Shown here one piece after another: positions 3-14,619 of a DNA stretch of 14,619 nt; position 1 is the stretch's first letter, and the number at the start of each line of letters is the position of its first letter. Source of the stretch: a virus; UHGV virus genome UHGV-1690626. One strand, given 5' to 3'. The notes under the pieces were generated by a model. The model worked only from the letters and a program-made list of their open reading frames with translations, had not been told where the DNA came from and searched no databases. The position numbers and the translations under genes were made by a program.

Positions 3-629
3 CACATACGCTTCCCCGGGCTGAAGGATTTTGTTAGAGACGCGGGTGTTTATAACCGGGATACGTTCAGGAATGTTGTAAACGTAAACCATTTTAATTC
101 ATCAGCTGAATACGAAAATGCTATTGCCCGGGGGCATGACGGCACAGCCAAAAGCCCCCTGGGGATGAGCATCAGGTATCGTTACGAGATAACTGATGAA
201 CTGGGTGTTATAGCCTCTTTTACATGGGCGCGCTCCATGACTAATGCGCAGGCATTTATTGATATTAACCCAGGAGATGAATCCAGAGAGGTTAAAAATC
301 CGGCAGCTTCAGCGAGAACTGATATCAGGGCTAATTACTGGAGCCTGTTAGCGGGTCCTTCGTGGCGGTTTAACGAATACCTCAGTGTGTATGCAATGGC
401 TGGTATGGGCGTAGCTAAAGTTACCGCTGACCTGAAAATTAAGGACAACATTAACAGTACCGGTGGATTTTCTGAAAGCAACAGTACGAAAAAAACAGCA
501 CTTGCATGGGCTGCTGGTGCACAATTTAACCTGAATGAAAGTGTTGCTATGGATGTCGCGTATGAAAGCTCCGGATCTGGTGACTGGCGCACGAGCGGGG
601 TTGTTGTAGGTATTGGCCTGAAATTCTGA
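3..629 (+). CDS. lom: Lom/Ail/PagC-family outer-membrane beta-barrel protein, 5'-partial in this window
   Basis: Frame-3 translation aligns by eye with lambda Lom and Yersinia Ail along its length (IRYRYEITDELGVIASF, YWSLLAGPSWRFNEYLSVYAMAGMG, C-terminal SSGSGDWRTSGVVVGIGLKF ending in an aromatic residue). The frame is open back to nt 3 with no in-frame ATG/GTG/TTG before the ATG at 165 and no signal-peptide-like stretch, so the true N-terminus is either outside the window or lost. Stop TGA at 627-629. Confidence 0.8.
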   Translation, partial: HIRFPGLKDFVRDAGVYNRDTFRNVVNVNHFNSSAEYENAIARGHDGTAKSPLGMSIRYRYEITDELGVIASFTWARSMTNAQAFIDINPGDESREVKNPAASARTDIRANYWSLLAGPSWRFNEYLSVYAMAGMGVAKVTADLKIKDNINSTGGFSESNSTKKTALAWAAGAQFNLNESVAMDVAYESSGSGDWRTSGVVVGIGLKF

Positions 630-861: not shown

Positions 862-1002
862 ATGTCGCAAAAATCGCTCATCACCGTCACAATTTGTATG
901 ACGGTAATCTTCACCATCTGGATGTTACACGGCTCGTTGTGTGAGTTCCGGCTGAATTTGTGGGGAGCGGAGTTTGCGGCGTTCTTACAGTGTAAGCAGT
1001 AG
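862..1002 (+). CDS. hok: Hok/Gef-family type I toxin (46 aa small membrane peptide)
   Basis: Not in the ORF track (too short). ATG at 862 preceded by AGGAGA (848-853) with 8-nt spacing. Product MSQKSLITVTICMTVIFTIWMLHGSLCEFRLNLWGAEFAAFLQCKQ has an N-terminal hydrophobic helix followed by the SLCE.R ... E.AAF..C pattern I recognise from Hok/Gef/HokA-type toxins. Stop TAG 1000-1002. Confidence 0.6.
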   Translation: MSQKSLITVTICMTVIFTIWMLHGSLCEFRLNLWGAEFAAFLQCKQ

Positions 1003-2668: not shown

Positions 2669-2920
2669 ATGGGATACGGTTTACTGGATATTGCGAATCA
2701 GTCACGTCGAGAGGCATTACAGGGAATAAGTGACGCCGACAGGCGACGTGAAGAAATTGAGGCTGCTAACAAGCAGATGGCGGCGCAACAGAAAGCGCAG
2801 AACAAACAGAATATCGGCACGGGAATTGGTACGGGTGCAGCTATGGGCGCTGCTGTTGGTGGTCTCCCCGGTGCGGCTATTGGTGCTGTCATAGGTGGTA
2901 TTGCTGGTTCTTTGTTTTAA
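2669..2920 (+). CDS. Small 83-aa protein: charged coiled-coil N-terminus plus C-terminal glycine-zipper (GxxxG) membrane segment
   Basis: AAGGAGG SD ahead of ATG 2669. C-terminal GTGIGTGAAMGAAVGGLPGAAIGAVIGGIAGSLF is a textbook glycine-zipper hydrophobic helix. Confidence 0.75.
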   Translation: MGYGLLDIANQSRREALQGISDADRRREEIEAANKQMAAQQKAQNKQNIGTGIGTGAAMGAAVGGLPGAAIGAVIGGIAGSLF

Positions 2921-2930
2921 GGAGTGGTGA

Positions 2931-4196
2931 ATGAGCGGATTTGCACAGGGTTTACTTGCCGGATTCAGCACGGTTGACCAGGCAATGACCCGTCGTAAGG
3001 AACTTGGTTTGCGAGAAGCACAGCTTGCTCAACAACAGAAAAATAACGAGCGCGATTTTGAATTTGCACAGTCGCAGTTTGAACATAATAAAGACGTTGA
3101 TCAGCGGAACTTTGATTACAGAGCCAAAGTCGACGACCGTAATTATGCACTGCAGGAAAGGGAGTTTAACGCCAACCAGAATTACCGGAATGCGTCGCTG
3201 GGTATGGAGCAGCAGCGACTCCGGATGCAGAAATACAACCAGCGACGGCTTGAGTATAACGATATGCTGGCGCGCGATCAGCCTGTGATGGCGGCGCTTG
3301 GAAAGGCTGTGGATGCTGGCGATCGGGATGCAGCAATGCGTCTTTACGGCCAGTTGTCAGAGGGTAATCCGCTGAGGCTGATGGCGAATGATGGCTATGT
3401 AGCGAAAGCGGGTCAGGCCGTGAACAACCTGCAAAAAATCTTTGATGACAAGCCGGACAGGGCTATCGCTTCACTTAATACGCCGGAGAATCTTGATGTC
3501 CTTTCCGGGGTGTTTGGCCCGGAACTGCAACAGCGTATTGGCATGCCCGATTCAACCGGGAAAAAGACGATAAAAGAGGCCAGGATTGGCAGTATCGTAC
3601 CGGCGCAGCAGGAAGGGTACGTACTTATTGGCCTTGATCTCACATACAGCGATGGCTCCACCGCGCATAAACCTGTAACAGAATACGGCAGTGCACATCC
3701 TGATGATCAAACCGTGCTGGCGGTGCCTGTTGATAAGGCTGTTGAGCTTGTCAGGGATCGCAGTAAATTCGCGGAAATTTCGAAAAATTTCGGCTATTTC
3801 ACGCCGAAGCAGCAGGGACTTTCTCTGGCGAAACTTCAGGAAGGAGCCAGCAGTGTAGCGGCGGAAGCGATCAAGAACGGCGGGAATGCTCAGGCGGCGG
3901 TGGATGAGTATTACGCTGCAACTGGTTCACCGCAACATCAGCAGAAAATTCAGCAGCAAAAAATTCAACAAGGGATTACCAGTTGGGCGGGTGATGATCC
4001 GGATAAGCAGGCATTCGCCAGAGAAGTTGCTTCCCGTCAGCCAGAAATGCTGGAGCCTCAGAATCAGAAATTGCTGGAAAACGGGTATGCGAATTTTCTC
4101 CGTATTCAAAAGGCTAAGGGGGAACAGGCCAGAGATGATAGTGCGGCCTCTGCATCTGAGTTTATCCGTGGTCTGAAACAGAATTACGCGCAGTAA
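2931..4196 (+). CDS. Hypothetical 421-aa protein with Gln/Arg-rich predicted coiled-coil N-terminal third
   Basis: AAGGAG SD ahead of ATG 2931, which is the first in-frame start after a TGA. Contains the QQKIQQQKIQQ repeat (nt about 3942-3975). No enzymatic motif recognised. Confidence 0.75.
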   Translation: MSGFAQGLLAGFSTVDQAMTRRKELGLREAQLAQQQKNNERDFEFAQSQFEHNKDVDQRNFDYRAKVDDRNYALQEREFNANQNYRNASLGMEQQRLRMQKYNQRRLEYNDMLARDQPVMAALGKAVDAGDRDAAMRLYGQLSEGNPLRLMANDGYVAKAGQAVNNLQKIFDDKPDRAIASLNTPENLDVLSGVFGPELQQRIGMPDSTGKKTIKEARIGSIVPAQQEGYVLIGLDLTYSDGSTAHKPVTEYGSAHPDDQTVLAVPVDKAVELVRDRSKFAEISKNFGYFTPKQQGLSLAKLQEGASSVAAEAIKNGGNAQAAVDEYYAATGSPQHQQKIQQQKIQQGITSWAGDDPDKQAFAREVASRQPEMLEPQNQKLLENGYANFLRIQKAKGEQARDDSAASASEFIRGLKQNYAQ

Positions 4197-4264: not shown

Positions 4265-7200
4265 ATGGCTTATTCCGATGAACAGCGCCCTGAAGCGCAA
4301 TTTGGCAACCAGAACCGCAACAGCCTGAACATTCAGCAGCCGGGCGAGACTGACAGCTATGATGCGTTTTTCTCCGATCCCAATCGCTGGAAGGACAACA
4401 GCACGTCGTTCAGCCTGGGCGATGTATTGCCAACTATGGGGAAAGGTGTCGCCCAGTCCATCCGGGGGACAGGGGAAATGGCCCGTGGACTCGGTGATGC
4501 GATGATTCAGAGTCCTGTAAAAACAGGGGCGCGTATTTTAAATGAGTTCAGCCGTATGGGGCTGCCGGGAGTCGCAACTGTTCAGGATATTTTTGTCGGT
4601 GGCAGCAAGGGGGCGGATGAGGTCATCGACACTCTGCCTGATGGAAAAAATGCGGTTACTGATACTGTCGGTAAAGGTCTGAAGGCCACAGGCAAGGCAG
4701 TCAGTGATGGTGCCAAAGCCTCGGATGAATGGCTGACAGATCAGATGTCGCCGGGTGCTGTTCGTGCGCTGAACACGCCAATGAGTGAAGGCTATGATGA
4801 TTCTGCGGTCTTGCTGACGAAGGGTGTAAACCTGATTGGTGCGCTTGTACCTGATCTGGTTGCAGGCGGTGTGACTAAAAAGCTGGGTGAAGTCACTCTG
4901 CGAAAAGTGCTGACCGCCGGGCTGGAGAAAAAATACATTGCGGCAGGGATGCAGCCGGAAAGAGCTACCGCACTGGCAGCAGAAGCTGTCGATAAAAAAA
5001 TGCCGGATTTATTCCAGGCAGGCCTGATCACCCATTCCTCAGCCAGCGCACAGGGGCAGAGTGCAATGGCAGCAGCAGACTCTGTTCTTAACGCGGATTA
5101 CTCTGAGCTGGCGAAGTCCCCGAAATTTCAGCAGACGTTTTTGTCAATTGATGCAGATCCGCAGCACGCACAGCTTACTGATCGCCAGAAAATGGATCTG
5201 GCAAAAGAGCGTGTTGCCGATGAGGTGCGCGCGCAGCTGGCAACCGATCCTCAGTTGCTGGCTGTGAATGCCATGGCGGCAAAACTGGGCGATGCACAGT
5301 TGCTTAATCTGGCGATGCGGGGTACGGCGAAGACCGTTAAGAGCGGCATTATCAGAAACGCCACAGAACAGGGCGTAATTAACGGGGCGCAGGGCGGCTA
5401 TTCGCGTTACCAGGAAAATATGGCGTTGCGTGAGACCGCCGGAATGGATGTGTCGCCGTGGGAGGGCGTGGCTGACGCAACAATCGACGGTGCTGCTCTT
5501 GGTGCAGCGATGGGGGCTCCATTTGGCGCGGTTGCCGGATATCGTGGCAGACGTCAGGCCGCAGACGAAGCCGCCATGCGTGAGGCTGAAGTCGTACAGC
5601 AGGGTGAAGCAGCCCCGCAACCCGAACCGGTTGATCCGGTGGCACAGCATCGTGAATCCATGCAGGGCATGAACCGCGAGCAGCTTCTGGAACAGTATGC
5701 TGATGCGGATATGGCACATGAGGGAGACACGTCTGCCGTTCATCGCCGGGAAGCCGCCAGCCAGCTGTTAAATGAACTGGATGAACAGGCGAAGCGACAG
5801 GCGGTGATGGATGAGCTGAAGGCGAAGCCGCGCCCTGAACTGCTTGAGGAATACCGAAAACTCAGCCTGAAGGAAGGGCGTACTGATACTGAAGAGCAGC
5901 AGTTACAGGCTATCCGTGATGTGCTTCGCCCTCAGCAGGAGGCCAGACCGGAGGCACAGCCACAGCCGGAAAATGCGGATGATGGCGACGGGAGTATTTA
6001 CCCGACGGTGCGGTTCCGCGATCCGGATGAAGTTCGTATTGAAATTAACGGGAGTGGTGCGTCCAGACCAGCAGAACGCATTGAAAAGGTGCGTCCGGAC
6101 AACCGTTATTTCACGGATGAAAAAAGTGCTCTGGGGAGCGACGTTTTCCGCAATGCCAGCGCCACCGGCCTGAAACCGTCCGTAGTGAAGAAAGGCGAGA
6201 ATCAGTATGCCGTTGAAATGGATAATCCTGCGTTCTCTGAAGATGTGGCAACGGAGACCATTAACACTCTGGCTGACGGAGAGCGTATTACTGATGCTGA
6301 TCCGATGGAACAGCCCGCGTTCATGCGTGACCCGCGATTCCGTGGTTTCACGGGGGATGATACAGAAGTGCAGGCCCGCCTTGCCCGTGGCAACGCGCCG
6401 ACGGCAGAGGAGCTTGTACGTTCACAGATGGCTGAAGGTGATGCCGGTCCGACAGCACAGGAGTTAACTGAGCGTCCACGCCTTCCCGCTCCCGGCGATA
6501 TTCATCCCGGACAGGGATATCCGTTACCAGGAGAAGTGGCGCGTACGCCGGATGAAAATCAGGCCGGACGTGGTGGTCGTTTTACCACAACCGGTGAGGT
6601 GAAGGGCCAGAGTTTCCAGAAAGGACGTGCGCAGGCACCGGAAAATGCCGCTGGTCGCCAGGGGGAAATACTGGAGGGCGAACCGGTTCGTCGTGGTCTG
6701 CCGTCACCGGATGAGCAGAACGCCACAGCACCAGTGCGTGAAGGACTTCCTGCACCTGAACAGCGTGGGGTTGATATGCCACATCCTGAATCACTCCCTC
6801 GTATGGTTCGTGACTCCCTTCCGGAACTGGCACAGCAGGCAGAAGCGCGCAGACAGACCGGGGATAATCGCCAGACCATAACCGATGTTCCGGATACTGA
6901 GGTGCCGGTGCCGGTGCCGGTAGATAAACCGAGCACTCACCAGCAGGCGCGTGGTGCAAAAATAGAAGACTTTGGCGAGGAGATTAAGGGCGCGGCAAAA
7001 CACCGTTATGCACAGCTTGCCGAAACACTGGGTAAAACGCTGGAAGACAGGGATTATGTCACGCAACCGCTGAGCAAACTGTTCCCGAAACCGGACTACG
7101 CAAAACTGGCGAACGAAGGTGCCGATGCTGATACCCTGGCAATGATAGCGCTGTATCGTAGCGATATTCCGGCGAAGACGAAACACAATACGGCTGGCTG

Positions 7201-10200
7201 GGGGGAGAGCGTAAAAAAAGTACGACACAGTGTATCGGAAATGCTGAACGGAACGGTCAGCGCGAAACGCCTCGCAGAATGGATGGAAGGCAGAATGCCC
7301 TCCCGTTACGCGGATACCTGGCAACTGTTACGCACGCTGCCACCTTCACAGATGGACAAGGCTTCTGCTTATCGGGTGGTATCGGGTGTGTATCAGGCGG
7401 CAGGAGGGAAGCGTTACGATCCGCCACAGAAACTTTATTCACTGCGCAATAAGGACAATAAGGGGACTAACCTCTTTTTCTCGGAAAGCAGGGATGAATT
7501 ACTGACAAAGGCGAAAGTCTGGTTTGCAGAGCTGGAGGAAAAGTCACAGGCGAAAGGTGATGAAAAAACAGCACCGTCACCGGATGACAAAATCAGCTTT
7601 GACGTTTACCGGAATACCCGCAGTGGCGATATTTTTATCGCTTATGGCAAAAACAAAATGCGGGTGAGAGGTGGCTTTAAGTCAGCCAGTGATGCGCGTA
7701 AGTACATTGATTCACATCGTGATGAGCTTGTTCGTCATGTGAAGGAGATGCGGGAGATTTCGCGTGAGGAGCAGCGTAACGCCACCAACCGCGATCGTAC
7801 CGGACCAGAACGCCGCAAGGGGGATGTTTCGCCGGAGCAGTTCAGTGATGCGTTTGGTTTTCGTGGTGTGCAGTTTGGTAATTATGTGGAAGGTCCGCGT
7901 CGTCAGGCTGATTTGAACCGGGCTTATGACTCGCTGCATGACCTGGCTGATGTGCTGAACGTGCCGACAAAAGCGCTTTCTCTGAACGGTCGTCTTGGGC
8001 TTGCTTTTGGTGCCCGTGGTAAGGGTAAGGCGGCGGCACACTATGAGCCGGGTGAGGTGGCAATCAACCTGACAAAAGGTAACGGACCGGGGGCGCTGGC
8101 CCACGAATGGTTCCATTCACTGGATAATTATTTTGGTCGTTATGATGTTTCCACTGACGGGAAGATCACGTCAGGTGGCGACTATATGACGGAAGCACAG
8201 CGTGCCGGGCGCGTATTTAAAGACGGCAGATATGTTGATGCGGAATATCCGGTACGTCAGGAGGTTTACGACGCGTTTAAAGGCGTGATGAAAGCGATCA
8301 ACAGCAGTGACATGCCGCGTCGTTCAGCGCTTCTCGATGAGGTGCGCTCAAAACCGTACTGGTCAACGGATGTTGAAATGGCGGCGCGTGCCTTTGAGCG
8401 TTATGTTCAGGATAAAGCGCGTACGGCTGGCGTGGAGAATGATTATCTGGTCAATATCCGTAAGGCACCTGAGCACAACACAGATAACACCTGGGCTTAT
8501 CCGACGAATGCGGAACTGGATGGTGGCATTCGTGAGGCATTCGATCACCTGTTCCGCACCCTGAAAACCCGTGAGACGGACAAGGGCGTTGCGTTTTATT
8601 CCCGTAAGGGCGTGACCCGCACACCTGAAGGCAATCTCATTTCGGATGTTAACCGCAGTGCGGAAGCCAAAGGCAGCCCGGTCCCGCAGGTTGAAGCGGT
8701 TGCCCGTGGCGTGATGAGTGGCATTAAGGACAGTGACCTGAAGGTCCGCGTGGTGAAGTCACAGAAAGAGGCTGAAGCACTGGCGGGTGAATCATTCGAC
8801 GGTTACGGCAAGGTGCACGCGTTCTATCGTCCGGATAAACGTGAAATTGTCCTGGTGGCGGATAACATTCCTGACGGGCGGACCGTTCGCGAGAAGCTGC
8901 GTCACGAGATTATCCACCATGCAATGGAGCATGTAGTCACGCCAGCGGAATATCAGACGATTATTAAGACCGTACTGAAAACCCGTGACAGTGATAACGC
9001 CACCATCCGTGAAGCCTGGCGTAAGGTTGATGCGTCTTATGGTAAGGAATCACCGGAAGTGCAGGCGGGTGAATTTCTGGCACATATGGCGGAGAAACAG
9101 CCGAATAAATTCGTGGCGGCATGGGAGCGTGTTGTTGCCCTGGTCAAAGGGGTACTGCGTCGCACGGGGTTACTGAAGCCGACAGAGCTGAACGATATCA
9201 GACTTGTTCGCGAAACTATTCGCACGTTAGGCCAGCGTGTGCGGGAAGGTTACACGCCGCGTGAGGATGGCGCTGGCGCATCGTCTCAGTACTCCCGTAG
9301 CGGTAAGCCTGATCCGTTCAAAGTGCCGGAAGGTGAGGGCGAGCGTTATCGTGATGACCTTGCCAGAATGATGAAGTCTCTGCGCTCAACGGATTTAACG
9401 GTAAACATCGGGCGTACGCCGCCGGTATTGCGTCACCTTGGCGCACCAGATTTGCCGCTGGTTATCTCCCGCGACACTGTGCGTAAGGCCACCAATGGTG
9501 TGAAACATGTGGTGCCGATGGATGTTATCGAGAGACTACCGGAACTGATGCACGATCCGGATGCAATTTACCGTTCCGCGACAGAAAGAAATGCGGTTGT
9601 GATGCTGCTTGATGCCATGGATAAAAATGGTGATCCTGTAGTGTCAGCGGTACACATGAAGGCTGTCCGGTCGCGCCTGGAAATCAACAAGGTAGCTTCA
9701 GTTTACGGTACAGAAAATGGAAAAAAACTGAAGAGTATGGAAATGACCGGGTTAACGTTGTACCGGAGAGAAAAATTAAGCCGCGATAACCTTCTGCACA
9801 GAGGGCTTCAATTGCCCAAAGGGGAACATTCTTATCGCGGCTCTGCGGATAAAATACTCTATCCTGAAGATATTCGCAAGGGGCCGCATTACTCCCGTAC
9901 CAGCAGTCTGACACCGGAAGAGACAATTGCATCGCGTTTTGTGCGCCAGATGCAGGATAAATTCCAGGTGCTGAAAGCTGTTCAGGAGAATATCCGTAAA
10001 ACTGGCGGAAAAATAGACGACAGTAACAACGCTTATATGGCAGAAGAACTCTTCCACGGGAAGGCGGAAAACGACCTGAACGTGATGAAGGAGCGCTATG
10101 TTCAGCCGCTGGCTAAATTACTGGCGGACTACAAAATTGCGCAGGCCGATCTGGATGAGTACCTCTACGCCCGTCACGCGCCGGAACGTAACGCGCATAT

Positions 10201-12634
10201 CGCGAAAATCAACCCGAAAATGCCGGACGGCGGTTCGGGGATGACCAACGCGGAAGCGGCGGAAATCATGCAGCGTGTGCGTAACAGTGGCAAACAGGCA
10301 CAGTATGACCGTCTGGCAGGGATTGTTGACGATATGCTGGCCCGTCGCCGTGAGCTTATCCGTGAGGCCGGACTGGAAGAGAGCGGTGTGGTGGATGCCT
10401 GGCAGAAAGCCTACCGTTACTACGTTCCCCTGAAAGGGCAGGATGTTGACGGTGTGGTGTCACTGCCCCGTACAGGTAAAGGCTTCACTATCGGCGGACG
10501 TGAAAGCAGGCAGGCCATGGGGCGTGCATCCCGCGCACAGTCTCCTTCCACTCAGGCGATACAGGATTTGAGCGAATCGCTGATCCGCAATCGCAAAAAT
10601 GAAGTGGGTAACGCCTTCCTGAAACTGGTACAGGATAATCCAGACAAGGATTACTGGCAGGTATTCACCAATGAGCGACCGGACACCATGCGTGCGATTG
10701 CAGAGCGTGTTGTTCCGGAAACCGGTGAAACCCGTCACGAAGTTGTCGAACGTCCTGTACCGATGGCAATGATGGCAGACCGGTACTTCACCACCAAAAA
10801 GAACGGCAAAACGTACTACATCAAACTCCATGATCCGCGCCTGATGCGTGCGATGAAGAATATGGGACCGGAAACCAGTAACGCCGTAATCCGCACGCTG
10901 GGGAAAGTTAACCGCTTCCTGGCAACGGTGAACACGTCGTATAACCCGGAATTTCTGGTCAGTAACTTCATCCGTGACGTGCAGACGGCGGTGATGAACC
11001 TGAAGGCGGAGCAGGGAAGGAGCGACGGTAAACTGAAAGGGCTGGATAACTTATCCGCCCTGGCTGTGGTGAAAGACAGCCGTTCTGCCATGTCAGCCGT
11101 ATACGCCAGTCTGCGTGGTAAAACCCTCACGGGCAAAGGCGCACAGTGGCAGAAAGTGTGGAAAGAGTTTGTTGAGGACGGAGGTAAAACCGGCTGGTTT
11201 AACATGGGTGACCTTGAAGGCCAGCAGAAGGAAATGGATCGCCTTGTATCGCTGGCGAAGGGAGGATGGAAAGGCCAGAGTATCGGTGCATGGAATTCGT
11301 TCCTTAACCTTGTCGAGGATGCCAACGGTGCGGTTGAAAACGCTCTGCGTCTTTCTGCCTATAAACACGCCCGTGATGCTGGTTTGTCACGCCAGCAGGC
11401 GGCGTCTCTTGCCAAAAACATGACGGTGAACTTTAACCGTCGTGGTGAGCAGGGAGCGCTGATGAACTCGCTGTATATGTTTGCCAACGCCAGCATTCAG
11501 GGGACCGCAAACCTGGTGAGAACGCTCGGACATCTTAATGGCGACGGGCCGTTACCGGAGCGCCTTCGCTGGAAGAATCTCAATGTACCGCAGAAAATCG
11601 CGCTTGCAGCTGTGGGAGCGGGTTATCTGCTTGGCTCGCTTAACCGCAGTGTTGCGGGGGAGGATGATGACGGGGTTAACTGGTATGACAAGGTGCCGTC
11701 TCATGTGAAAGAGCGTAACCTCGTCATTATGAAATCGGTGTTCGGGGGCAAGGCCGGAGAGTACTGGAGTATTCCTCTGCCTTACGGGTACAACGTTTTC
11801 TTCCTGCTCGGGCATACTGCTGAAGGTGTGGCAGCGGGCGACCTGACTGCTTCACGTGCTGCCGGTAATGTTGTCGGTGGTATCCTGGGGGCATTCAGTC
11901 CTGTGGGCAGTGAAACGTCGGAAACACTGTCCGGGGCATTGCTGAAAAATGCAGCGCCGACCATTCTGCGTCCGTTTGCGAACCTTGCCATGAATGAAAA
12001 CTTCATGGGGGCGCAGATTTACCAGGAGAACATGCCATTTGGCACACCGAAACCGGACAGCCAGCTGGGCAGACGTTCAACGCCTGAGGCGTACAAGGCG
12101 TTTGCATCCTGGCTGAATGCGTTCTCAGGTGGCAGCCAGTATCGTCCCGGCGCGGTGGATATCACACCGGAATCGCTGAAATTCTGGATTGACTATATCT
12201 CCGGAGGGACAGGGCGCTTCATTTCCAAAACCACAGATGCGGCGGTGAAATCGCTGAACGGTATTGATATACCGGAGCAGCAGGTGCCCTTCCTGGGGAA
12301 AATTTCGGGTGAGGTGATGCCGTATGCTGACCAGCAGAAGATGTATGACCGGATGACGGAGGTTGCGCAGTACCACGCAGAGCTGAAGAGTCTGACCGGT
12401 GCAGAAAGAACGGCATTCATTGACGAGAACAACGGAAAATTGTCGATGAACGGGCTTATGCAGGATACCCGGAAGAGACTGAAGGATTTGCGTAAACAAC
12501 GTGATGCCATTTACGCCGACAGTACTCTCAGTCTGGCGCAACAGTCGGCGATGGTGAAATCGGTAGAGCGGGATATGAAAATTGCCGTGGATCGGTTTAA
12601 CCGCGAGTACAACAAAAAAGTGGGAGTGGATTAA
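4265..12634 (+). CDS. Giant 2,789-aa multidomain protein with two HExxH zincin-like motifs; candidate virion-delivered polyvalent or ejection protein
   Basis: Uninterrupted 8,370-nt ORF with GGAG 6 nt upstream. ALAHEWFHSLD at aa 1280-1284 (nt 8102-8116) and LRHEIIHHAMEH at aa 1547-1551 (nt 8903-8917). Acidic Pro/Glu/Gln/Arg-rich low-complexity stretch at aa about 430-900. Glycine-zipper-like segment IDGAALGAAMGAPFGAVAGY at aa about 405-425. Hydrophobic/Gly-rich stretches in the C-terminal 700 aa. No Walker A, DEAD-box or single-subunit RNA polymerase motifs seen by eye. Reality of the CDS is high confidence; function is inference. Confidence 0.85.
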   Translation: MAYSDEQRPEAQFGNQNRNSLNIQQPGETDSYDAFFSDPNRWKDNSTSFSLGDVLPTMGKGVAQSIRGTGEMARGLGDAMIQSPVKTGARILNEFSRMGLPGVATVQDIFVGGSKGADEVIDTLPDGKNAVTDTVGKGLKATGKAVSDGAKASDEWLTDQMSPGAVRALNTPMSEGYDDSAVLLTKGVNLIGALVPDLVAGGVTKKLGEVTLRKVLTAGLEKKYIAAGMQPERATALAAEAVDKKMPDLFQAGLITHSSASAQGQSAMAAADSVLNADYSELAKSPKFQQTFLSIDADPQHAQLTDRQKMDLAKERVADEVRAQLATDPQLLAVNAMAAKLGDAQLLNLAMRGTAKTVKSGIIRNATEQGVINGAQGGYSRYQENMALRETAGMDVSPWEGVADATIDGAALGAAMGAPFGAVAGYRGRRQAADEAAMREAEVVQQGEAAPQPEPVDPVAQHRESMQGMNREQLLEQYADADMAHEGDTSAVHRREAASQLLNELDEQAKRQAVMDELKAKPRPELLEEYRKLSLKEGRTDTEEQQLQAIRDVLRPQQEARPEAQPQPENADDGDGSIYPTVRFRDPDEVRIEINGSGASRPAERIEKVRPDNRYFTDEKSALGSDVFRNASATGLKPSVVKKGENQYAVEMDNPAFSEDVATETINTLADGERITDADPMEQPAFMRDPRFRGFTGDDTEVQARLARGNAPTAEELVRSQMAEGDAGPTAQELTERPRLPAPGDIHPGQGYPLPGEVARTPDENQAGRGGRFTTTGEVKGQSFQKGRAQAPENAAGRQGEILEGEPVRRGLPSPDEQNATAPVREGLPAPEQRGVDMPHPESLPRMVRDSLPELAQQAEARRQTGDNRQTITDVPDTEVPVPVPVDKPSTHQQARGAKIEDFGEEIKGAAKHRYAQLAETLGKTLEDRDYVTQPLSKLFPKPDYAKLANEGADADTLAMIALYRSDIPAKTKHNTAGWGESVKKVRHSVSEMLNGTVSAKRLAEWMEGRMPSRYADTWQLLRTLPPSQMDKASAYRVVSGVYQAAGGKRYDPPQKLYSLRNKDNKGTNLFFSESRDELLTKAKVWFAELEEKSQAKGDEKTAPSPDDKISFDVYRNTRSGDIFIAYGKNKMRVRGGFKSASDARKYIDSHRDELVRHVKEMREISREEQRNATNRDRTGPERRKGDVSPEQFSDAFGFRGVQFGNYVEGPRRQADLNRAYDSLHDLADVLNVPTKALSLNGRLGLAFGARGKGKAAAHYEPGEVAINLTKGNGPGALAHEWFHSLDNYFGRYDVSTDGKITSGGDYMTEAQRAGRVFKDGRYVDAEYPVRQEVYDAFKGVMKAINSSDMPRRSALLDEVRSKPYWSTDVEMAARAFERYVQDKARTAGVENDYLVNIRKAPEHNTDNTWAYPTNAELDGGIREAFDHLFRTLKTRETDKGVAFYSRKGVTRTPEGNLISDVNRSAEAKGSPVPQVEAVARGVMSGIKDSDLKVRVVKSQKEAEALAGESFDGYGKVHAFYRPDKREIVLVADNIPDGRTVREKLRHEIIHHAMEHVVTPAEYQTIIKTVLKTRDSDNATIREAWRKVDASYGKESPEVQAGEFLAHMAEKQPNKFVAAWERVVALVKGVLRRTGLLKPTELNDIRLVRETIRTLGQRVREGYTPREDGAGASSQYSRSGKPDPFKVPEGEGERYRDDLARMMKSLRSTDLTVNIGRTPPVLRHLGAPDLPLVISRDTVRKATNGVKHVVPMDVIERLPELMHDPDAIYRSATERNAVVMLLDAMDKNGDPVVSAVHMKAVRSRLEINKVASVYGTENGKKLKSMEMTGLTLYRREKLSRDNLLHRGLQLPKGEHSYRGSADKILYPEDIRKGPHYSRTSSLTPEETIASRFVRQMQDKFQVLKAVQENIRKTGGKIDDSNNAYMAEELFHGKAENDLNVMKERYVQPLAKLLADYKIAQADLDEYLYARHAPERNAHIAKINPKMPDGGSGMTNAEAAEIMQRVRNSGKQAQYDRLAGIVDDMLARRRELIREAGLEESGVVDAWQKAYRYYVPLKGQDVDGVVSLPRTGKGFTIGGRESRQAMGRASRAQSPSTQAIQDLSESLIRNRKNEVGNAFLKLVQDNPDKDYWQVFTNERPDTMRAIAERVVPETGETRHEVVERPVPMAMMADRYFTTKKNGKTYYIKLHDPRLMRAMKNMGPETSNAVIRTLGKVNRFLATVNTSYNPEFLVSNFIRDVQTAVMNLKAEQGRSDGKLKGLDNLSALAVVKDSRSAMSAVYASLRGKTLTGKGAQWQKVWKEFVEDGGKTGWFNMGDLEGQQKEMDRLVSLAKGGWKGQSIGAWNSFLNLVEDANGAVENALRLSAYKHARDAGLSRQQAASLAKNMTVNFNRRGEQGALMNSLYMFANASIQGTANLVRTLGHLNGDGPLPERLRWKNLNVPQKIALAAVGAGYLLGSLNRSVAGEDDDGVNWYDKVPSHVKERNLVIMKSVFGGKAGEYWSIPLPYGYNVFFLLGHTAEGVAAGDLTASRAAGNVVGGILGAFSPVGSETSETLSGALLKNAAPTILRPFANLAMNENFMGAQIYQENMPFGTPKPDSQLGRRSTPEAYKAFASWLNAFSGGSQYRPGAVDITPESLKFWIDYISGGTGRFISKTTDAAVKSLNGIDIPEQQVPFLGKISGEVMPYADQQKMYDRMTEVAQYHAELKSLTGAERTAFIDENNGKLSMNGLMQDTRKRLKDLRKQRDAIYADSTLSLAQQSAMVKSVERDMKIAVDRFNREYNKKVGVD
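6902..6919 (+). repeat. In-frame tandem hexanucleotide repeat (GTGCCG)x3 encoding VPVPVP
   Basis: ggtgccggtgccggtgccggta read directly in the sequence, inside the low-complexity region of the giant gene. Confidence 0.9.
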
Positions 12635-13023: not shown

Positions 13024-13596
13024 TCATTGGCGTACCTCCTTCGGCGGTTCTGGTAGCGGCATCCAGTGGGTTACTTCTTTGAGATGCAGGTCTTCGCCAT
13101 CACCGTCATCCCAAGTGGGATTGCCATCATTAAACCAGTCGCCATATACGCCGACCTGAGTGTTGGGGATGCTTGGTGGGTAGTTGTTTTTAAAGTCAGC
13201 TGCTAACACATAGTATTGTCGCTCTCCCATTTCTGGCATCCGCTCACTACAGCTTATCCAACTATCCGGAGTTCCCGGAGAGTTGCCATTTACATCGAAG
13301 TTTGGCTCTGCGTCCTGAACCAGGAGGATGTAACCATTCTTGGCAGTATCAAGTTCTAACGCCTCGGTGACGGTGCCGAAATAGCGATTACCTAAATCAG
13401 CATCACAAGTGCTTACATCAATGGAAACTTCCATGCCCTCGATTAATTCTGGCAAGTTGTAAGTTTGGCTTACAGGTTCGGCTTCCAGAGATGCCAGCGC
13501 AATCCGTGCAAGTTCCATTTGTTCGCCACGGGTAAGTCCGTTATCAAGCGGATTTTTAATGAATAATTCGATACGTTCTTTGGTTATAGCGCTCAT
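13024..13596 (-). CDS. DUF551-domain phage protein (190 aa)
   Basis: C-terminal LKEVTHWMPLPEPPKE matches the W-x-P-L-P-E-P-P signature I associate with DUF551 proteins of lambdoid early regions. ATG at 13596 with AAGGAG SD chosen over the TTG at 13677 reported in the ORF track. Start lies 1 nt after the upstream gene's stop. Confidence 0.65.
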   Translation of the reverse strand: MSAITKERIELFIKNPLDNGLTRGEQMELARIALASLEAEPVSQTYNLPELIEGMEVSIDVSTCDADLGNRYFGTVTEALELDTAKNGYILLVQDAEPNFDVNGNSPGTPDSWISCSERMPEMGERQYYVLAADFKNNYPPSIPNTQVGVYGDWFNDGNPTWDDGDGEDLHLKEVTHWMPLPEPPKEVRQ

Positions 13597-13597
13597 C

Positions 13598-14383
13598 TCA
13601 CTCTCCTTTGATACGAATGCCCGCGGCGTGTGGCACATTAACTTCCACGATGCGCACTGTTGGTTTGTACATCTCAATCGCTGTCAGCCAGTCAGCTCCT
13701 GTCATGCGCTTTTCCGCATCGCCATTAGTCCACTTAACCGGTACACCAATAGACTTCATCGCGATTTCTATTTCCCCGGCGATGGCGCTTTTTCCGCAAC
13801 CAGTAAAACCAGATACAACGACAAGAACTTCGCCTTTGGCTGGTTTTATTTCCCGTGCTTCCTGCCCTGATTTGCGCAGCAAAACAGCGTACTTTAATGC
13901 GTCCTGGGCTTTCTGAAATTTCAGTGCATAGTCAGTGGCGATTTTCTCCAGTTCAGCAATACGCTTACTCCCATCCGAGATAACACCTTCGTAATACTCA
14001 CGCTGCTCGTTGAGTTTTGATTTTGTCTCCTCAAGCTCAACGCGCAGCTTCCCTACCGTTAGCGCAATATCCTCGTTCTCCTGGTCGCGGCGTTTGATGT
14101 ATTGCTGGTTTCTTTCCCGTTCATCCAGCAGTGCCAGCACGGTAGCCGGATTGGCTGCGGCGATGAATTCAGCATTGGCCTGCTGTTCCATTTGGAAATC
14201 TTCATCGAAACCGCTTTCAGGATGTGCTCCTTCAATTCTGCAAATGGGAATATATCCAGCAGCCTCGCGATGAATTAGTGCATCATCACCATCAAATCGG
14301 TTCTCTCCATATTCGAGCGACCACTCACCACGCGTTGCTTTTTCTGCCTTTTCACGCAGTACCTGATAGTTAATCTCGCTCAT
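13598..14383 (-). CDS. Ead/Ea22-like early-region protein (261 aa) with coiled-coil middle and a Walker-A-like motif near the C-terminus
   Basis: N-terminal MSEINYQVLREKAEKATRGEW plus a long charged coiled coil resemble Ea22-like proteins of lambdoid early-left operons. GFTGCGKS (nt about 13777-13800) fits G-x4-G-K-S. ATG at 14383 preferred over the TTG at 14407. Confidence 0.55.
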   Translation of the reverse strand: MSEINYQVLREKAEKATRGEWSLEYGENRFDGDDALIHREAAGYIPICRIEGAHPESGFDEDFQMEQQANAEFIAAANPATVLALLDERERNQQYIKRRDQENEDIALTVGKLRVELEETKSKLNEQREYYEGVISDGSKRIAELEKIATDYALKFQKAQDALKYAVLLRKSGQEAREIKPAKGEVLVVVSGFTGCGKSAIAGEIEIAMKSIGVPVKWTNGDAEKRMTGADWLTAIEMYKPTVRIVEVNVPHAAGIRIKGE

Positions 14384-14619
14384 TTTTCTCTTCGCTCCGG
14401 TATACAAGAATTACAACGTCACCTCTGCTAATTACGCGAGCTGGACCTCCTGGCTCCATGCTGTCAATCCCGAAGGCTTCGGAAAACGCATTCATTGCCT
14501 TCTGGCGTTGATCCTGCTTACGGCATTTATTCCATTTTTTCAGTAACAACAGCGATAGCCACCGCCCGGCGCAGAACATAATGTAAAAATAACCAAGAAG
14601 CGCCAGACCTGTGTTGAGG
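14370..14619 (-). CDS. Hypothetical protein, 3' part only (5' end beyond window), with a hydrophobic stretch
   Basis: Minus-strand frame is open from the window edge to the stop at 14370-14372. Contains LALLGYFYIMFCAGRWLSLLLL. Overlaps the Ea22-like start by 14 nt. Confidence 0.4.
   Translation of the reverse strand, partial: LNTGLALLGYFYIMFCAGRWLSLLLLKKWNKCRKQDQRQKAMNAFSEAFGIDSMEPGGPARVISRGDVVILVYRSEEKNERD

Follow-up and report, generated by a model that had tools for sequence, protein, structure and literature searches.

Residues 429 to 899 of a giant protein encoded in UHGV virus genome UHGV-1690626 are read here, with somewhat better than even confidence, as a composite, beads-on-a-string tether with embedded docking modules inside a packaged polyvalent protein of about 300 kDa. 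The 14,619-nucleotide stretch of that genome that was analyzed (the window) is the late, right-hand end of a short-tailed lambdoid phage of the Shiga toxin (Stx) type (Sepvirinae), and its nucleotides 5549 to 6961 encode the 471 residues in question as part of a single open reading frame (ORF) of 2,789 residues. An original prediction, made from the sequence alone, had placed the region correctly in position and frame and had taken it for an acidic, low-complexity, intrinsically disordered linker. The protein and its class are already known, and hundreds of sequenced Stx phages carry the segment; the new finding is a modest one, namely, that the "linker" is a string of modules, two of which, a helical module and a motif-rich block, lie outside the domain libraries, with the block surpassing the named LPD domains in conservation across genera. 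We found no published description of the region from residue 429 to residue 899.

Modules and spacers of the segment

The anatomy of the segment was derived from seven full-length Stx-phage copies, Salmonella relatives, and distant giant proteins, the last being collected by an exhaustive phmmer search of the segment against 1.84 billion representative sequences. This search returned 16 matches, and all identified sources were Enterobacterales; those looked up for the distant giant proteins were Edwardsiella, Pectobacterium, Serratia, and Yersinia. The Serratia orthologue, which shares its four Pfam domains with the window protein, sits at the end of a prophage-like gene block that adjoins host genes. 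Residues 380 to 960 were modeled with AlphaFold from an alignment of 11 sequences, with confidence expressed as the predicted local distance difference test score (pLDDT), and selection was expressed as the ratio of nonsynonymous to synonymous divergence (dN/dS). Three spacers, a folded helical module, a dispensable insert, a conserved block, and a variable proline-rich stretch make up the segment:

4265 to 12634, plus strand: giant ORF, 2,789 amino acids, about 8.4 kb and about 300 kDa (ORF list and translation)
5549 to 5638, plus strand (residues 429 to 458): spacer 1, charged and Gln/Pro-rich, including APQPEP at residues 450 to 455; pLDDT below 50, length and sequence varying between genera
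5639 to 5926, plus strand (residues 459 to 554): block A, predicted five-helix module; AlphaFold pLDDT 85 to 92, helices at model positions 79 to 175
5927 to 5989, plus strand (residues 555 to 575): spacer 2, RPQQEARPEAQPQPENADDGD; pLDDT below 50, alignment variable and gapped
5990 to 6304, plus strand (residues 576 to 680): block B, lineage-specific optional insert, from presence and absence among orthologues
6305 to 6634, plus strand (residues 681 to 790): block C, family-wide conserved module, from conservation across genera and dN/dS
6635 to 6859, plus strand (residues 791 to 865): block D, Pro-rich and variable, with two [RE]GLPxP[DE] copies (residues 810 to 818 and 826 to 834) and a weakly predicted helix at about residues 846 to 865
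6860 to 6958, plus strand (residues 866 to 898): hypervariable true linker, 0.67 identity with indels among Stx phages

Block A carries the conserved pattern R[ED]xLLxxYAxADL ... AxxxL ... PRxExLxxYRxL ... AxRxVL, in which the hydrophobic positions are kept. It is retained in the Salmonella, Pectobacterium, and Edwardsiella orthologues (28 to 46% identity), is absent in those of Serratia and Yersinia, and has a dN/dS of 0.109; no significant internal similarity was detected between its halves, as 116 of 1,000 shuffles reached the same Smith-Waterman score. A disordered linker is expected to lack structure along its whole length, and the five helices predicted here do not agree with that expectation. 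The original prediction had seen no hydrophobic core pattern in the region and had named a well-folded domain with conserved hydrophobic positions as evidence that would count against it; residues 459 to 554 are predicted, with confidence, to be a helical bundle of precisely this kind, and the uniform linker picture fails in part.

Block B is found in the E. coli phages and in Salmonella P0039 and is cleanly absent from Salmonella P0053, P0054, P0073, and P0074 and from all distant orthologues; it is therefore regarded as an optional insert. A small alpha/beta core is weakly predicted at about residues 614 to 654 (pLDDT 59 to 75), the remainder of the block scores below 50, and dN/dS over residues 559 to 680 is 0.106. 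Kinship of this block to a SPOR-like alpha/beta element (GATFEAVEGGYAIRMP) of the Serratia and Pectobacterium orthologues was considered and rejected (BLASTP E = 2; no Pfam SPOR match), and the structural hints in that direction were nonsignificant (PrgK/EscJ ring-building motifs, E of 0.5 to 2; Bam35c SPOR protein, E of 1.8).

In distant giant proteins the exhaustive phmmer search matched block C and no other part of the segment; the block contains 22 invariant columns among eight sequences from six genera. Two of its motifs are as follows:

6314 to 6328, plus strand (residues 684 to 688): PAFMR, with an invariant core P-A-[FY]-x-R that bears a superficial likeness to DIPAFLRK, the C-terminal peptide of FtsZ
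6473 to 6496, plus strand (residues 737 to 744): RPRLPAPG, proline motif that hardly varies in the alignment, within the half of block C predicted as coil

Short helices are predicted in the N-terminal half (PAFMRDPRFRGF ... TAEELVRSQM; pLDDT 57 to 70), while the C-terminal half (RPRLPAPGDIHPGQGYPLPGEV ... AGRGGRFTTTGEVKGQSF) is Pro/Gly-rich and predicted as coil (pLDDT below 50). Among the Stx phages the dN/dS of block C is 0.056, the lowest in the protein, compared with 0.196 for LPD5 and 0.082 for the C-terminal 950 residues. Block C shares 42 to 44% identity with the orthologues of Serratia, Pectobacterium, and Edwardsiella (42 to 72% over all comparisons across genera), compared with 18 to 19% for LPD38, 13 to 29% for the N-terminal region, and 33%, in Serratia only, for LPD5; identity of at least 35% in all four genus-level orthologues is reached only by block C and by the HEIIH region at residues 1437 to 1745. 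Strict conservation across homologues, which the original prediction had listed as speaking against a disordered linker, thus applies to part of the segment, residues 681 to 790 being among the most conserved of the protein.

The same block has no detectable relatives outside Enterobacterales in a profile search with its alignment, and residues 429 to 899 gave no curated family match: none in Pfam (E up to 10), none in PADLOC, no PDB sequence match, and in NCBIfam only a chance-level LapB hit (E of 0.057, 12.5 bits). A fold search with the model of residues 380 to 960 recovered its own family (phi191 fragment, E of 1e-46) and nothing beyond it, the best PDB match having an E of 0.23 and BFVD also being searched. 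Blocks A and C therefore lie outside every searched domain library and are not among the Pfam LPD families.

The spacers behave differently from these blocks. Spacer 1 has a dN/dS of 0.35 (residues 429 to 463) and 6 to 20% identity across genera, spacer 2 is the most acidic piece of the segment (about -0.29 per residue over residues 559 to 575), and residues 866 to 898 occur among Stx phages as two unalignable allele types; an E. coli variant, P0071, has an insertion of approximately 300 residues there, after block D. The fast divergence expected of a disordered linker holds only for residues 429 to 458, 555 to 575, and 866 to 898, and the segment as a whole (0.905 identity among the seven Stx-phage copies) is no more divergent than its flanks (0.90 and 0.88). 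The window allele differs from those of most Stx phages chiefly in residues 866 to 898 and in block D. Over residues 791 to 899 dN/dS is 0.248 and dS is 0.67, and the rise of dS to 0.67 to 0.77 over residues 791 to 1046 indicates recombination between divergent alleles. Runs of X-Pro dipeptides (APQPEP at 450 to 455, QPQPE, and VPVPVPV at 880 to 886) are located exactly at module boundaries.

Comparison of segment length across homologues, one of the checks proposed with the original prediction, bore out a variable length with a retained composition. Between the Gly-zipper and the domain that follows lie 354 to 568 residues, depending on the genus, the changes between genera being gains and losses of whole modules at the spacers, and all versions are E+Q+P-rich and K-poor, with a net charge of -0.04 to -0.075 per residue and 18 to 21% hydrophobic residues. 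Extra modules were also observed elsewhere in the protein: P0074 (Salmonella, 2,931 residues) and P0080 (Edwardsiella, 2,410 residues) have an additional central module, absent from the window protein, with a phosphoribosyltransferase-like signature recognized by eye (...YFIVDDTLTQGGTLAGL...), and phage P27 has an insertion of about 76 residues near residues 1551 to 1600. Module swapping is therefore not limited to residues 429 to 899.

Composition and predicted disorder

The segment begins immediately after a Gly-zipper-like stretch (...GAPFGAVAGYRGRR, residues 405 to 430) and ends at KIEDFGEEIKGAAKH (from residue 899). It consists of 11.5% A, 11.3% E, 9.8% R, 9.3% P, 7.9% Q, and 7.4% D, and in comparison with the rest of the protein, by Fisher tests, it is enriched in E (odds ratio 1.9, p = 2e-4), Q (odds ratio 2.2, p = 3e-4), and P (odds ratio 2.4, p = 1.5e-5), while K, Y, and W are depleted. 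No significant enrichment was found for D (p = 0.5) or R (p = 0.07), so that of the five residues in which the region had been described as dense, E, Q, and P stand out about twofold and D and R do not. The charge calculation agreed with the predicted net acidity, giving -28 (-0.059 per residue, isoelectric point 4.8) for the segment and +30 for the rest of the protein; basic residues make up 12.8% of the segment. Hydrophobic residues amount to 19%, compared with 27 to 29% in the flanks, and Kyte-Doolittle hydropathy is below -0.8 in nearly all 50-residue windows between residues 426 and 876.

The description as low complexity did not hold, since the Shannon entropy of 50-residue windows (3.5 to 3.9 bits) has the same range as in the rest of the protein and the region has a single tandem repeat at the DNA level, of 21 nucleotides:

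6901 to 6921, plus strand: hexanucleotide repeat (GGTGCC)x3.5, encoding VPVPVPV (residues 880 to 886); copy number differs in Stx2_16002 (VPVPV)

The one-unit difference in this VP repeat between close relatives is consistent with slippage of the GGTGCC hexamer. The short repeats that had been pointed out are all present (RGLPSPDEQ at 810 to 818, EGLPAPEQR at 826 to 834, and VPVPVPV) and amount to one 8- to 9-mer occurring twice and the hexanucleotide tract. The GLPSPDEQ/GLPAPEQR pair is marginal, with two copies only and 5 of 1,000 shuffles reaching its Smith-Waterman score, and BLASTP of the segment against itself revealed no usable internal repeats.

With regard to disorder, the biased composition and low hydrophobicity expected of a disordered linker are both present, the charge-hydropathy boundary places every sub-block on its disordered side, and about 245 of the 471 residues (about 52%) have a pLDDT below 50, with values of 57 to 75 at residues 614 to 654 and 679 to 745. 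The original idea of an intrinsically disordered linker is thus upheld by charge-hydropathy, low pLDDT over half of the region, and variable length, but not for the folded residues 459 to 554 or the conserved residues 681 to 790, nor by overall divergence, which does not exceed that of the flanks. The stronger arguments for real spacers are the evolutionary ones: variable lengths, the unalignable alleles of residues 866 to 898, module gain and loss at Pro-rich joints, and the jump in dS.

Presence in virions

The segment is present in the mature packaged protein. The orthologue in phage phi24B, gp47 (2,811 residues as translated there), is abundant in purified virions by mass spectrometry and invisible in the electron cryomicroscopy (cryo-EM) map, and the authors propose that it is an encapsidated ejection protein (10.64898/2026.04.10.717836). 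In the same data, spectral counts for gp47 are highest in the uppermost gel slices (2188, 1686, 1187, and 1260) and then drop, while the 724-residue portal protein peaks in the fifth; most of the packaged protein is therefore whole or in large fragments (10.64898/2026.04.10.717836). Peptides from phi24B virions identical to the window sequence are EAASQLLNELDEQAK(R), GFTGDDTEVQAR, GNAPTAEELVR, LPAPGDIHPGQGYPLPGEVAR, and FTTTGEVK, with 43 to 80 spectra each; block A is represented by EAASQLLNELDEQAK(R) and block C by four peptides, and a 41-residue peptide, SQMAEGDAGPTAQELTERPRLPAPGDIHPGQGYPLPGEVAR, reads across RPRLPAPG. Packaging of what the original prediction called an injected phage protein is accordingly supported by virion proteomics, whereas its injection is a proposal of the phi24B authors.

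A proposed composite tether and its alternatives

The hydrophilic, Pro-rich, and loosely packed character of the region may keep it extended and easily unfolded, which could allow storage of the 2,789-residue chain in the head and its later threading through the narrow portal-tail channel. The region would at the same time space the N-terminal helical Gly-zipper part from the enzymatic modules (zincin-like HExxH, LPD5, LPD1, MuF_C, and LPD38). Block C, and probably block A, could act as protein-protein docking elements for capsid assembly or for the ejection conduit and not as passive filler, and their partner would more likely be a phage virion protein than a host one. Several points weigh against this reading: (i) the charge-hydropathy plot puts even LPD5, a recognized domain, on its "disordered" side; (ii) low pLDDT is weak evidence of disorder here, the alignments being shallow (11 and 7 sequences); (iii) a mean pLDDT of only 49 was likewise obtained for the N-terminal region, which is presumably folded; (iv) the docking role of block C is drawn from conservation alone, with no predicted fold; and (v) exit through the tail at infection is what the phi24B authors propose (10.64898/2026.04.10.717836).

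Among the other explanations, a pure entropic spacer, in which all 470 residues are disordered and only length, flexibility, and charge matter, is unlikely. It would account for the enrichment in E, Q, and P, the low hydrophobicity, the position in the charge-hydropathy plot, the half of the residues with a pLDDT below 50, the lack of Pfam, NCBIfam, and PDB matches, and a length that varies across genera at constant composition, but not for the confident helical module at 459 to 554, for a block C with 22 invariant columns over six genera, a dN/dS of 0.056, and an identity across genera above that of named domains, or for an overall divergence no higher than that of the flanks. Quite unlikely, too, is a processing region, in which the Pro/Gly-rich half of block C (RPRLPAPGDIHPGQGYPLPGEV...) would be cut by the protein's own zincin-like HExxH domains or by a host protease, freeing the N-terminal part from the effector modules after delivery. 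Self-processing by MPTase domains has been proposed for polyvalent proteins in general by Iyer et al. in 2017 (PMC5512222), and this proposal is joined by the two HExxH motifs, the CLCA_X-type zincin match over the first of them, the co-conservation of block C with the HEIIH region (at least 35% identity in four genus-level orthologues for both), and the spread of gp47 peptides through many gel slices under the top one. Yet the virion protein is found mainly at the top of the gel, there is no discrete enrichment at the slice of about 80 kDa expected for an N-terminal fragment, neither HExxH region reaches the threshold of a curated protease family, and the 41-residue peptide spans the motif, so that at least part of the population is uncut there. 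It is distinctly unlikely that the segment is mostly folded, as a chain of compact, family-specific domains that AlphaFold missed owing to the small family: the alignment of only 11 sequences, the poor score of the presumably folded N-terminal region, purifying selection on blocks A, B, and C, and the moderate pLDDT (57 to 75) at 614 to 654 and 679 to 745 would agree with this, but blocks C and D contain 9 to 15% proline and just 17 to 19% hydrophobic residues, the alleles of residues 866 to 898 cannot be aligned, spacer lengths vary, and whole modules are gained or lost without compensating changes.

The likeness of the start of block C to the FtsZ tail was pursued as a possible mimicry, by which the invariant [DE]-x-P-A-[FY]-[LM]-R would imitate DIPAFLRK and dock the injected protein on FtsA/ZipA at the inner membrane, or engage MinC, SlmA, ZapD, or ClpX; we consider this very improbable. 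The MG1655 ftsZ gene confirmed the tail of E. coli FtsZ (...DYLDIPAFLRKQAD), Serratia has DIPAYLRQ and Salmonella LDVPAFMRD, and all six genera keep P, A, the aromatic residue, and R. A disordered stretch precedes the motif, for which a short helix is predicted, much as the FtsZ tail is helical when bound, and by our own estimate from residue frequencies the seven-residue pattern is expected by chance at about 2e-4 per protein of this size. Checked against the real FtsZ sequence and published mutagenesis, however, the candidate failed at the position of I374, which is critical for binding of ZipA, FtsA, MinC, and SlmA, the I374K change abolishing it (PMC4117426): at the equivalent position, the window protein and Edwardsiella have Gln, and Pectobacterium and Yersinia have Thr. 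At the position of L378, the window protein has M, Edwardsiella has Gln, and the other three (Serratia, Pectobacterium, and Yersinia) keep L; the motif is internal and not C-terminal, the window having E-Q-P-A-F-M-R; the likeness was noticed post hoc among many possible motifs; and no precedent was found in the literature. A bolder proposal, just as improbable, would make block C an undescribed, family-defining interaction module of the giant ejection proteins of Enterobacterales prophages, its FtsZ-tail-like helix docking on FtsA/ZipA, or on some other protein that binds the tail, on the cytoplasmic side of the inner membrane. Least probable of all is an acidic nucleic-acid mimic or antirestriction decoy of the Ocr/ArdA kind entering the cell with the DNA, an idea that the original prediction had raised. 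It could draw on the net charge of -28, on the C-terminal PHROG match "DarB-like antirestriction," and on one Serratia orthologue named "Antirestriction protein" by its source; these labels, however, concern other parts of the giant protein. The segment carries -0.059 charges per residue with 12.8% basic residues, and its most acidic 117-residue window reaches -14 (at most -0.12 per residue), compared with -28 in 117 residues (-0.239 per residue, verified against PDB 1s7z) for Ocr; the mean density is thus about a quarter of Ocr's. Nor is the segment predicted to form a rigid scaffold on which phosphate-like charges could be arrayed, and searches by sequence and by fold gave no match to Ocr or ArdA.

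The modular anatomy matters in several respects. The giant gene fills about 14% of the genome in the commonest Stx phages, and how such a protein is stored and delivered is a question raised explicitly by the phi24B cryo-EM authors. The module map can guide experimenters: block B should be deletable, residues 866 to 898 are a natural site for tagging or insertion, and block C, being better conserved across genera than the named LPD domains, is the first target for mutation. An attractive idea, the acidic DNA mimic, is removed; otherwise this is an ordinary, modular, partly disordered interdomain region in a known protein class.

The giant protein and its setting

The giant ORF encodes a polyvalent, virion-packaged (ejection) protein, the orthologue of phi24B gp47 and of PA2 gp48. 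Its gene is 94 to 95% identical at the nucleotide level to 186 Stx-type phage records, the closest match to the segment is in phage PhiR12_3 (98.7%), and the RefSeq name of the orthologue is "LPD5 domain-containing protein." Polyvalent proteins, giant multidomain proteins with LPD and effector modules, were catalogued by Iyer et al. in 2017 (PMC5512222), and the window protein is one in their sense, a single chain of 2,789 residues containing LPD5 (1047 to 1196), LPD1 (1357 to 1436), MuF_C (1746 to 1835), and LPD38 (2472 to 2677), all far over the Pfam cutoffs. A match to PHROG 616 spans the whole protein, and the C-terminal third also matches the PHROG "DarB-like antirestriction." The features bordering the segment are as follows:

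5477 to 5548, plus strand (residues 405 to 428, DGAALGAAMGAPFGAVAGYRG): Gly-zipper-like stretch, modeled as helical by AlphaFold, that closes the all-helical N-terminal region and borders the segment on its upstream side
7403 to 7852, plus strand (residues 1047 to 1196): LPD5 domain, the first Pfam-recognized domain downstream of the segment (E of 3e-45)
8102 to 8116, plus strand (residues 1280 to 1284): HEWFH, the first HExxH, inside a zincin-like region (NCBIfam CLCA_X, residues 1178 to 1433, below cutoff)
8903 to 8917, plus strand (residues 1547 to 1551): HEIIH, the second HExxH; residues 1437 to 1745 conserved in all genus-level orthologues

This arrangement agrees with the location originally given for the segment, between a Gly-rich N-terminal region and an HExxH-containing core, as a helical part ending in the Gly-zipper lies upstream and LPD5, HEWFH, and HEIIH lie downstream. 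AlphaFold predicted the N-terminal 440 residues to be all-helical with low confidence (mean pLDDT 49). The Gly-zipper_OmpA match at residues 405 to 428 is weak (E of 0.31), G413, G417, G421, G425, and R427 are unchanged in seven orthologues, and the Gly-zipper N-terminal helical region is probably membrane associating. The CLCA_X match over the HEWFH region (window positions 7796 to 8563) has an E of 1e-44 and 152.8 bits, compared with a curated cutoff of 260, and no MPTase family was matched in the giant protein by Pfam. The CLCA metalloprotease domain is self-cleaving; the match suggests a zincin related to CLCA, which bears on the idea of autoprocessing. ORFs on the opposite strand or in other frames inside the segment (e.g., 5144 to 5743 and 6559 to 6936, both minus strand) were rejected as by-products of a GC-rich frame, the giant ORF being favored because its plus-strand frame is under purifying selection and yields peptides in mass spectrometry. 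Rfam detected no RNA family in the window.

Upstream, the gene order is that of RefSeq relatives: Lom, a hok-like gene, four small genes, and a 421-residue gene. The Lom/Ail ORF (165 to 629, plus strand) covers only positions 52 to 199 of the profile and starts with an ATG after an in-frame stop, so that Lom may be N-terminally truncated or disrupted here. The 46-residue ORF (862 to 1002, plus strand) resembles Hok/Gef-type membrane toxins and is "MokW-like host killing" in RefSeq phages; no Sok-type antisense RNA was found in Rfam at the gathering threshold. An 83-residue protein (2669 to 2920, plus strand) combines a Gly-zipper of the YMGG type with a weak match to class II bacteriocins and is called "bacteriocin" in RefSeq phages, and its likely phi24B counterpart (86 residues) has only trace counts in virion preparations. 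The 421-residue protein directly upstream of the giant gene (2931 to 4196, plus strand) belongs to no Pfam family; its phi24B orthologue, gp48, is labeled "Transcription factor?" and is abundant in purified virions, with 1634 spectra and a peak slice that fits its size (10.64898/2026.04.10.717836). It is probably another internal or ejection protein.

About 390 nucleotides past the stop codon of the giant gene, lambdoid early-left genes (DUF551 and Ead/Ea22-like) follow on the minus strand (13024 to 13677 and 13598 to 14407), and no integrase or att site lies between; most Stx phages have attR or int next, and Shigella phage 75/02 Stx is arranged like the window. Most database relatives of the segment are partial proteins on E. 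coli contigs of 0.7 to 2.5 kb, which suggests that draft assemblies often break within the giant gene, probably owing to several similar prophage copies in one genome.

Comparison with known systems

Internal and ejection proteins of podoviruses (T7 gp14 to gp16, P22 gp7, gp16, and gp20, the N4 virion RNA polymerase, and crAss-like cargo) are stored in the head, are invisible or poorly ordered in symmetric reconstructions, and have to lose at least part of their fold to cross a narrow tail channel. Searches by sequence and by fold detected no similarity to them, and, unlike them, the window protein unites putative conduit and effector functions in one chain of about 300 kDa. Pro-rich interdomain linkers are exemplified by the (Glu-Pro)n/(Lys-Pro)n spacer of TonB and the Ala/Pro linkers of 2-oxo-acid dehydrogenase E2 chains, and the segment resembles these in having X-Pro dipeptide runs at module boundaries. 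A TonB-like polyproline rod was nevertheless rejected: the runs are only 6 to 7 residues long, compared with about 30 or more, and a rigid, periplasm-spanning rod is therefore not indicated. Like Ocr (T7 gp0.3), which acts at the moment of DNA entry, the segment is acidic and phage encoded; unlike Ocr, it has an approximately fourfold-lower net charge density, many basic residues, and no predicted compact fold.

With the polyvalent proteins of Iyer et al., the window protein shares the giant multidomain layout of LPD5, LPD1, MuF_C, and LPD38 with candidate zincin-like HExxH regions and the swapping of modules between relatives, codelivery with DNA being a proposal for the giant protein; that work catalogues domains, and its text does not use the terms "linker," "disordered," or "low-complexity" (PMC5512222). 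The closest counterparts are phi24B gp47 and the proteins of the other Sepvirinae Stx phages (such as 933W, PA2, and P13374), which are orthologous, with the same Pfam domains, gene neighborhood, and position of the segment; nothing of substance sets the window protein apart from them, and it represents another allele of the same gene.

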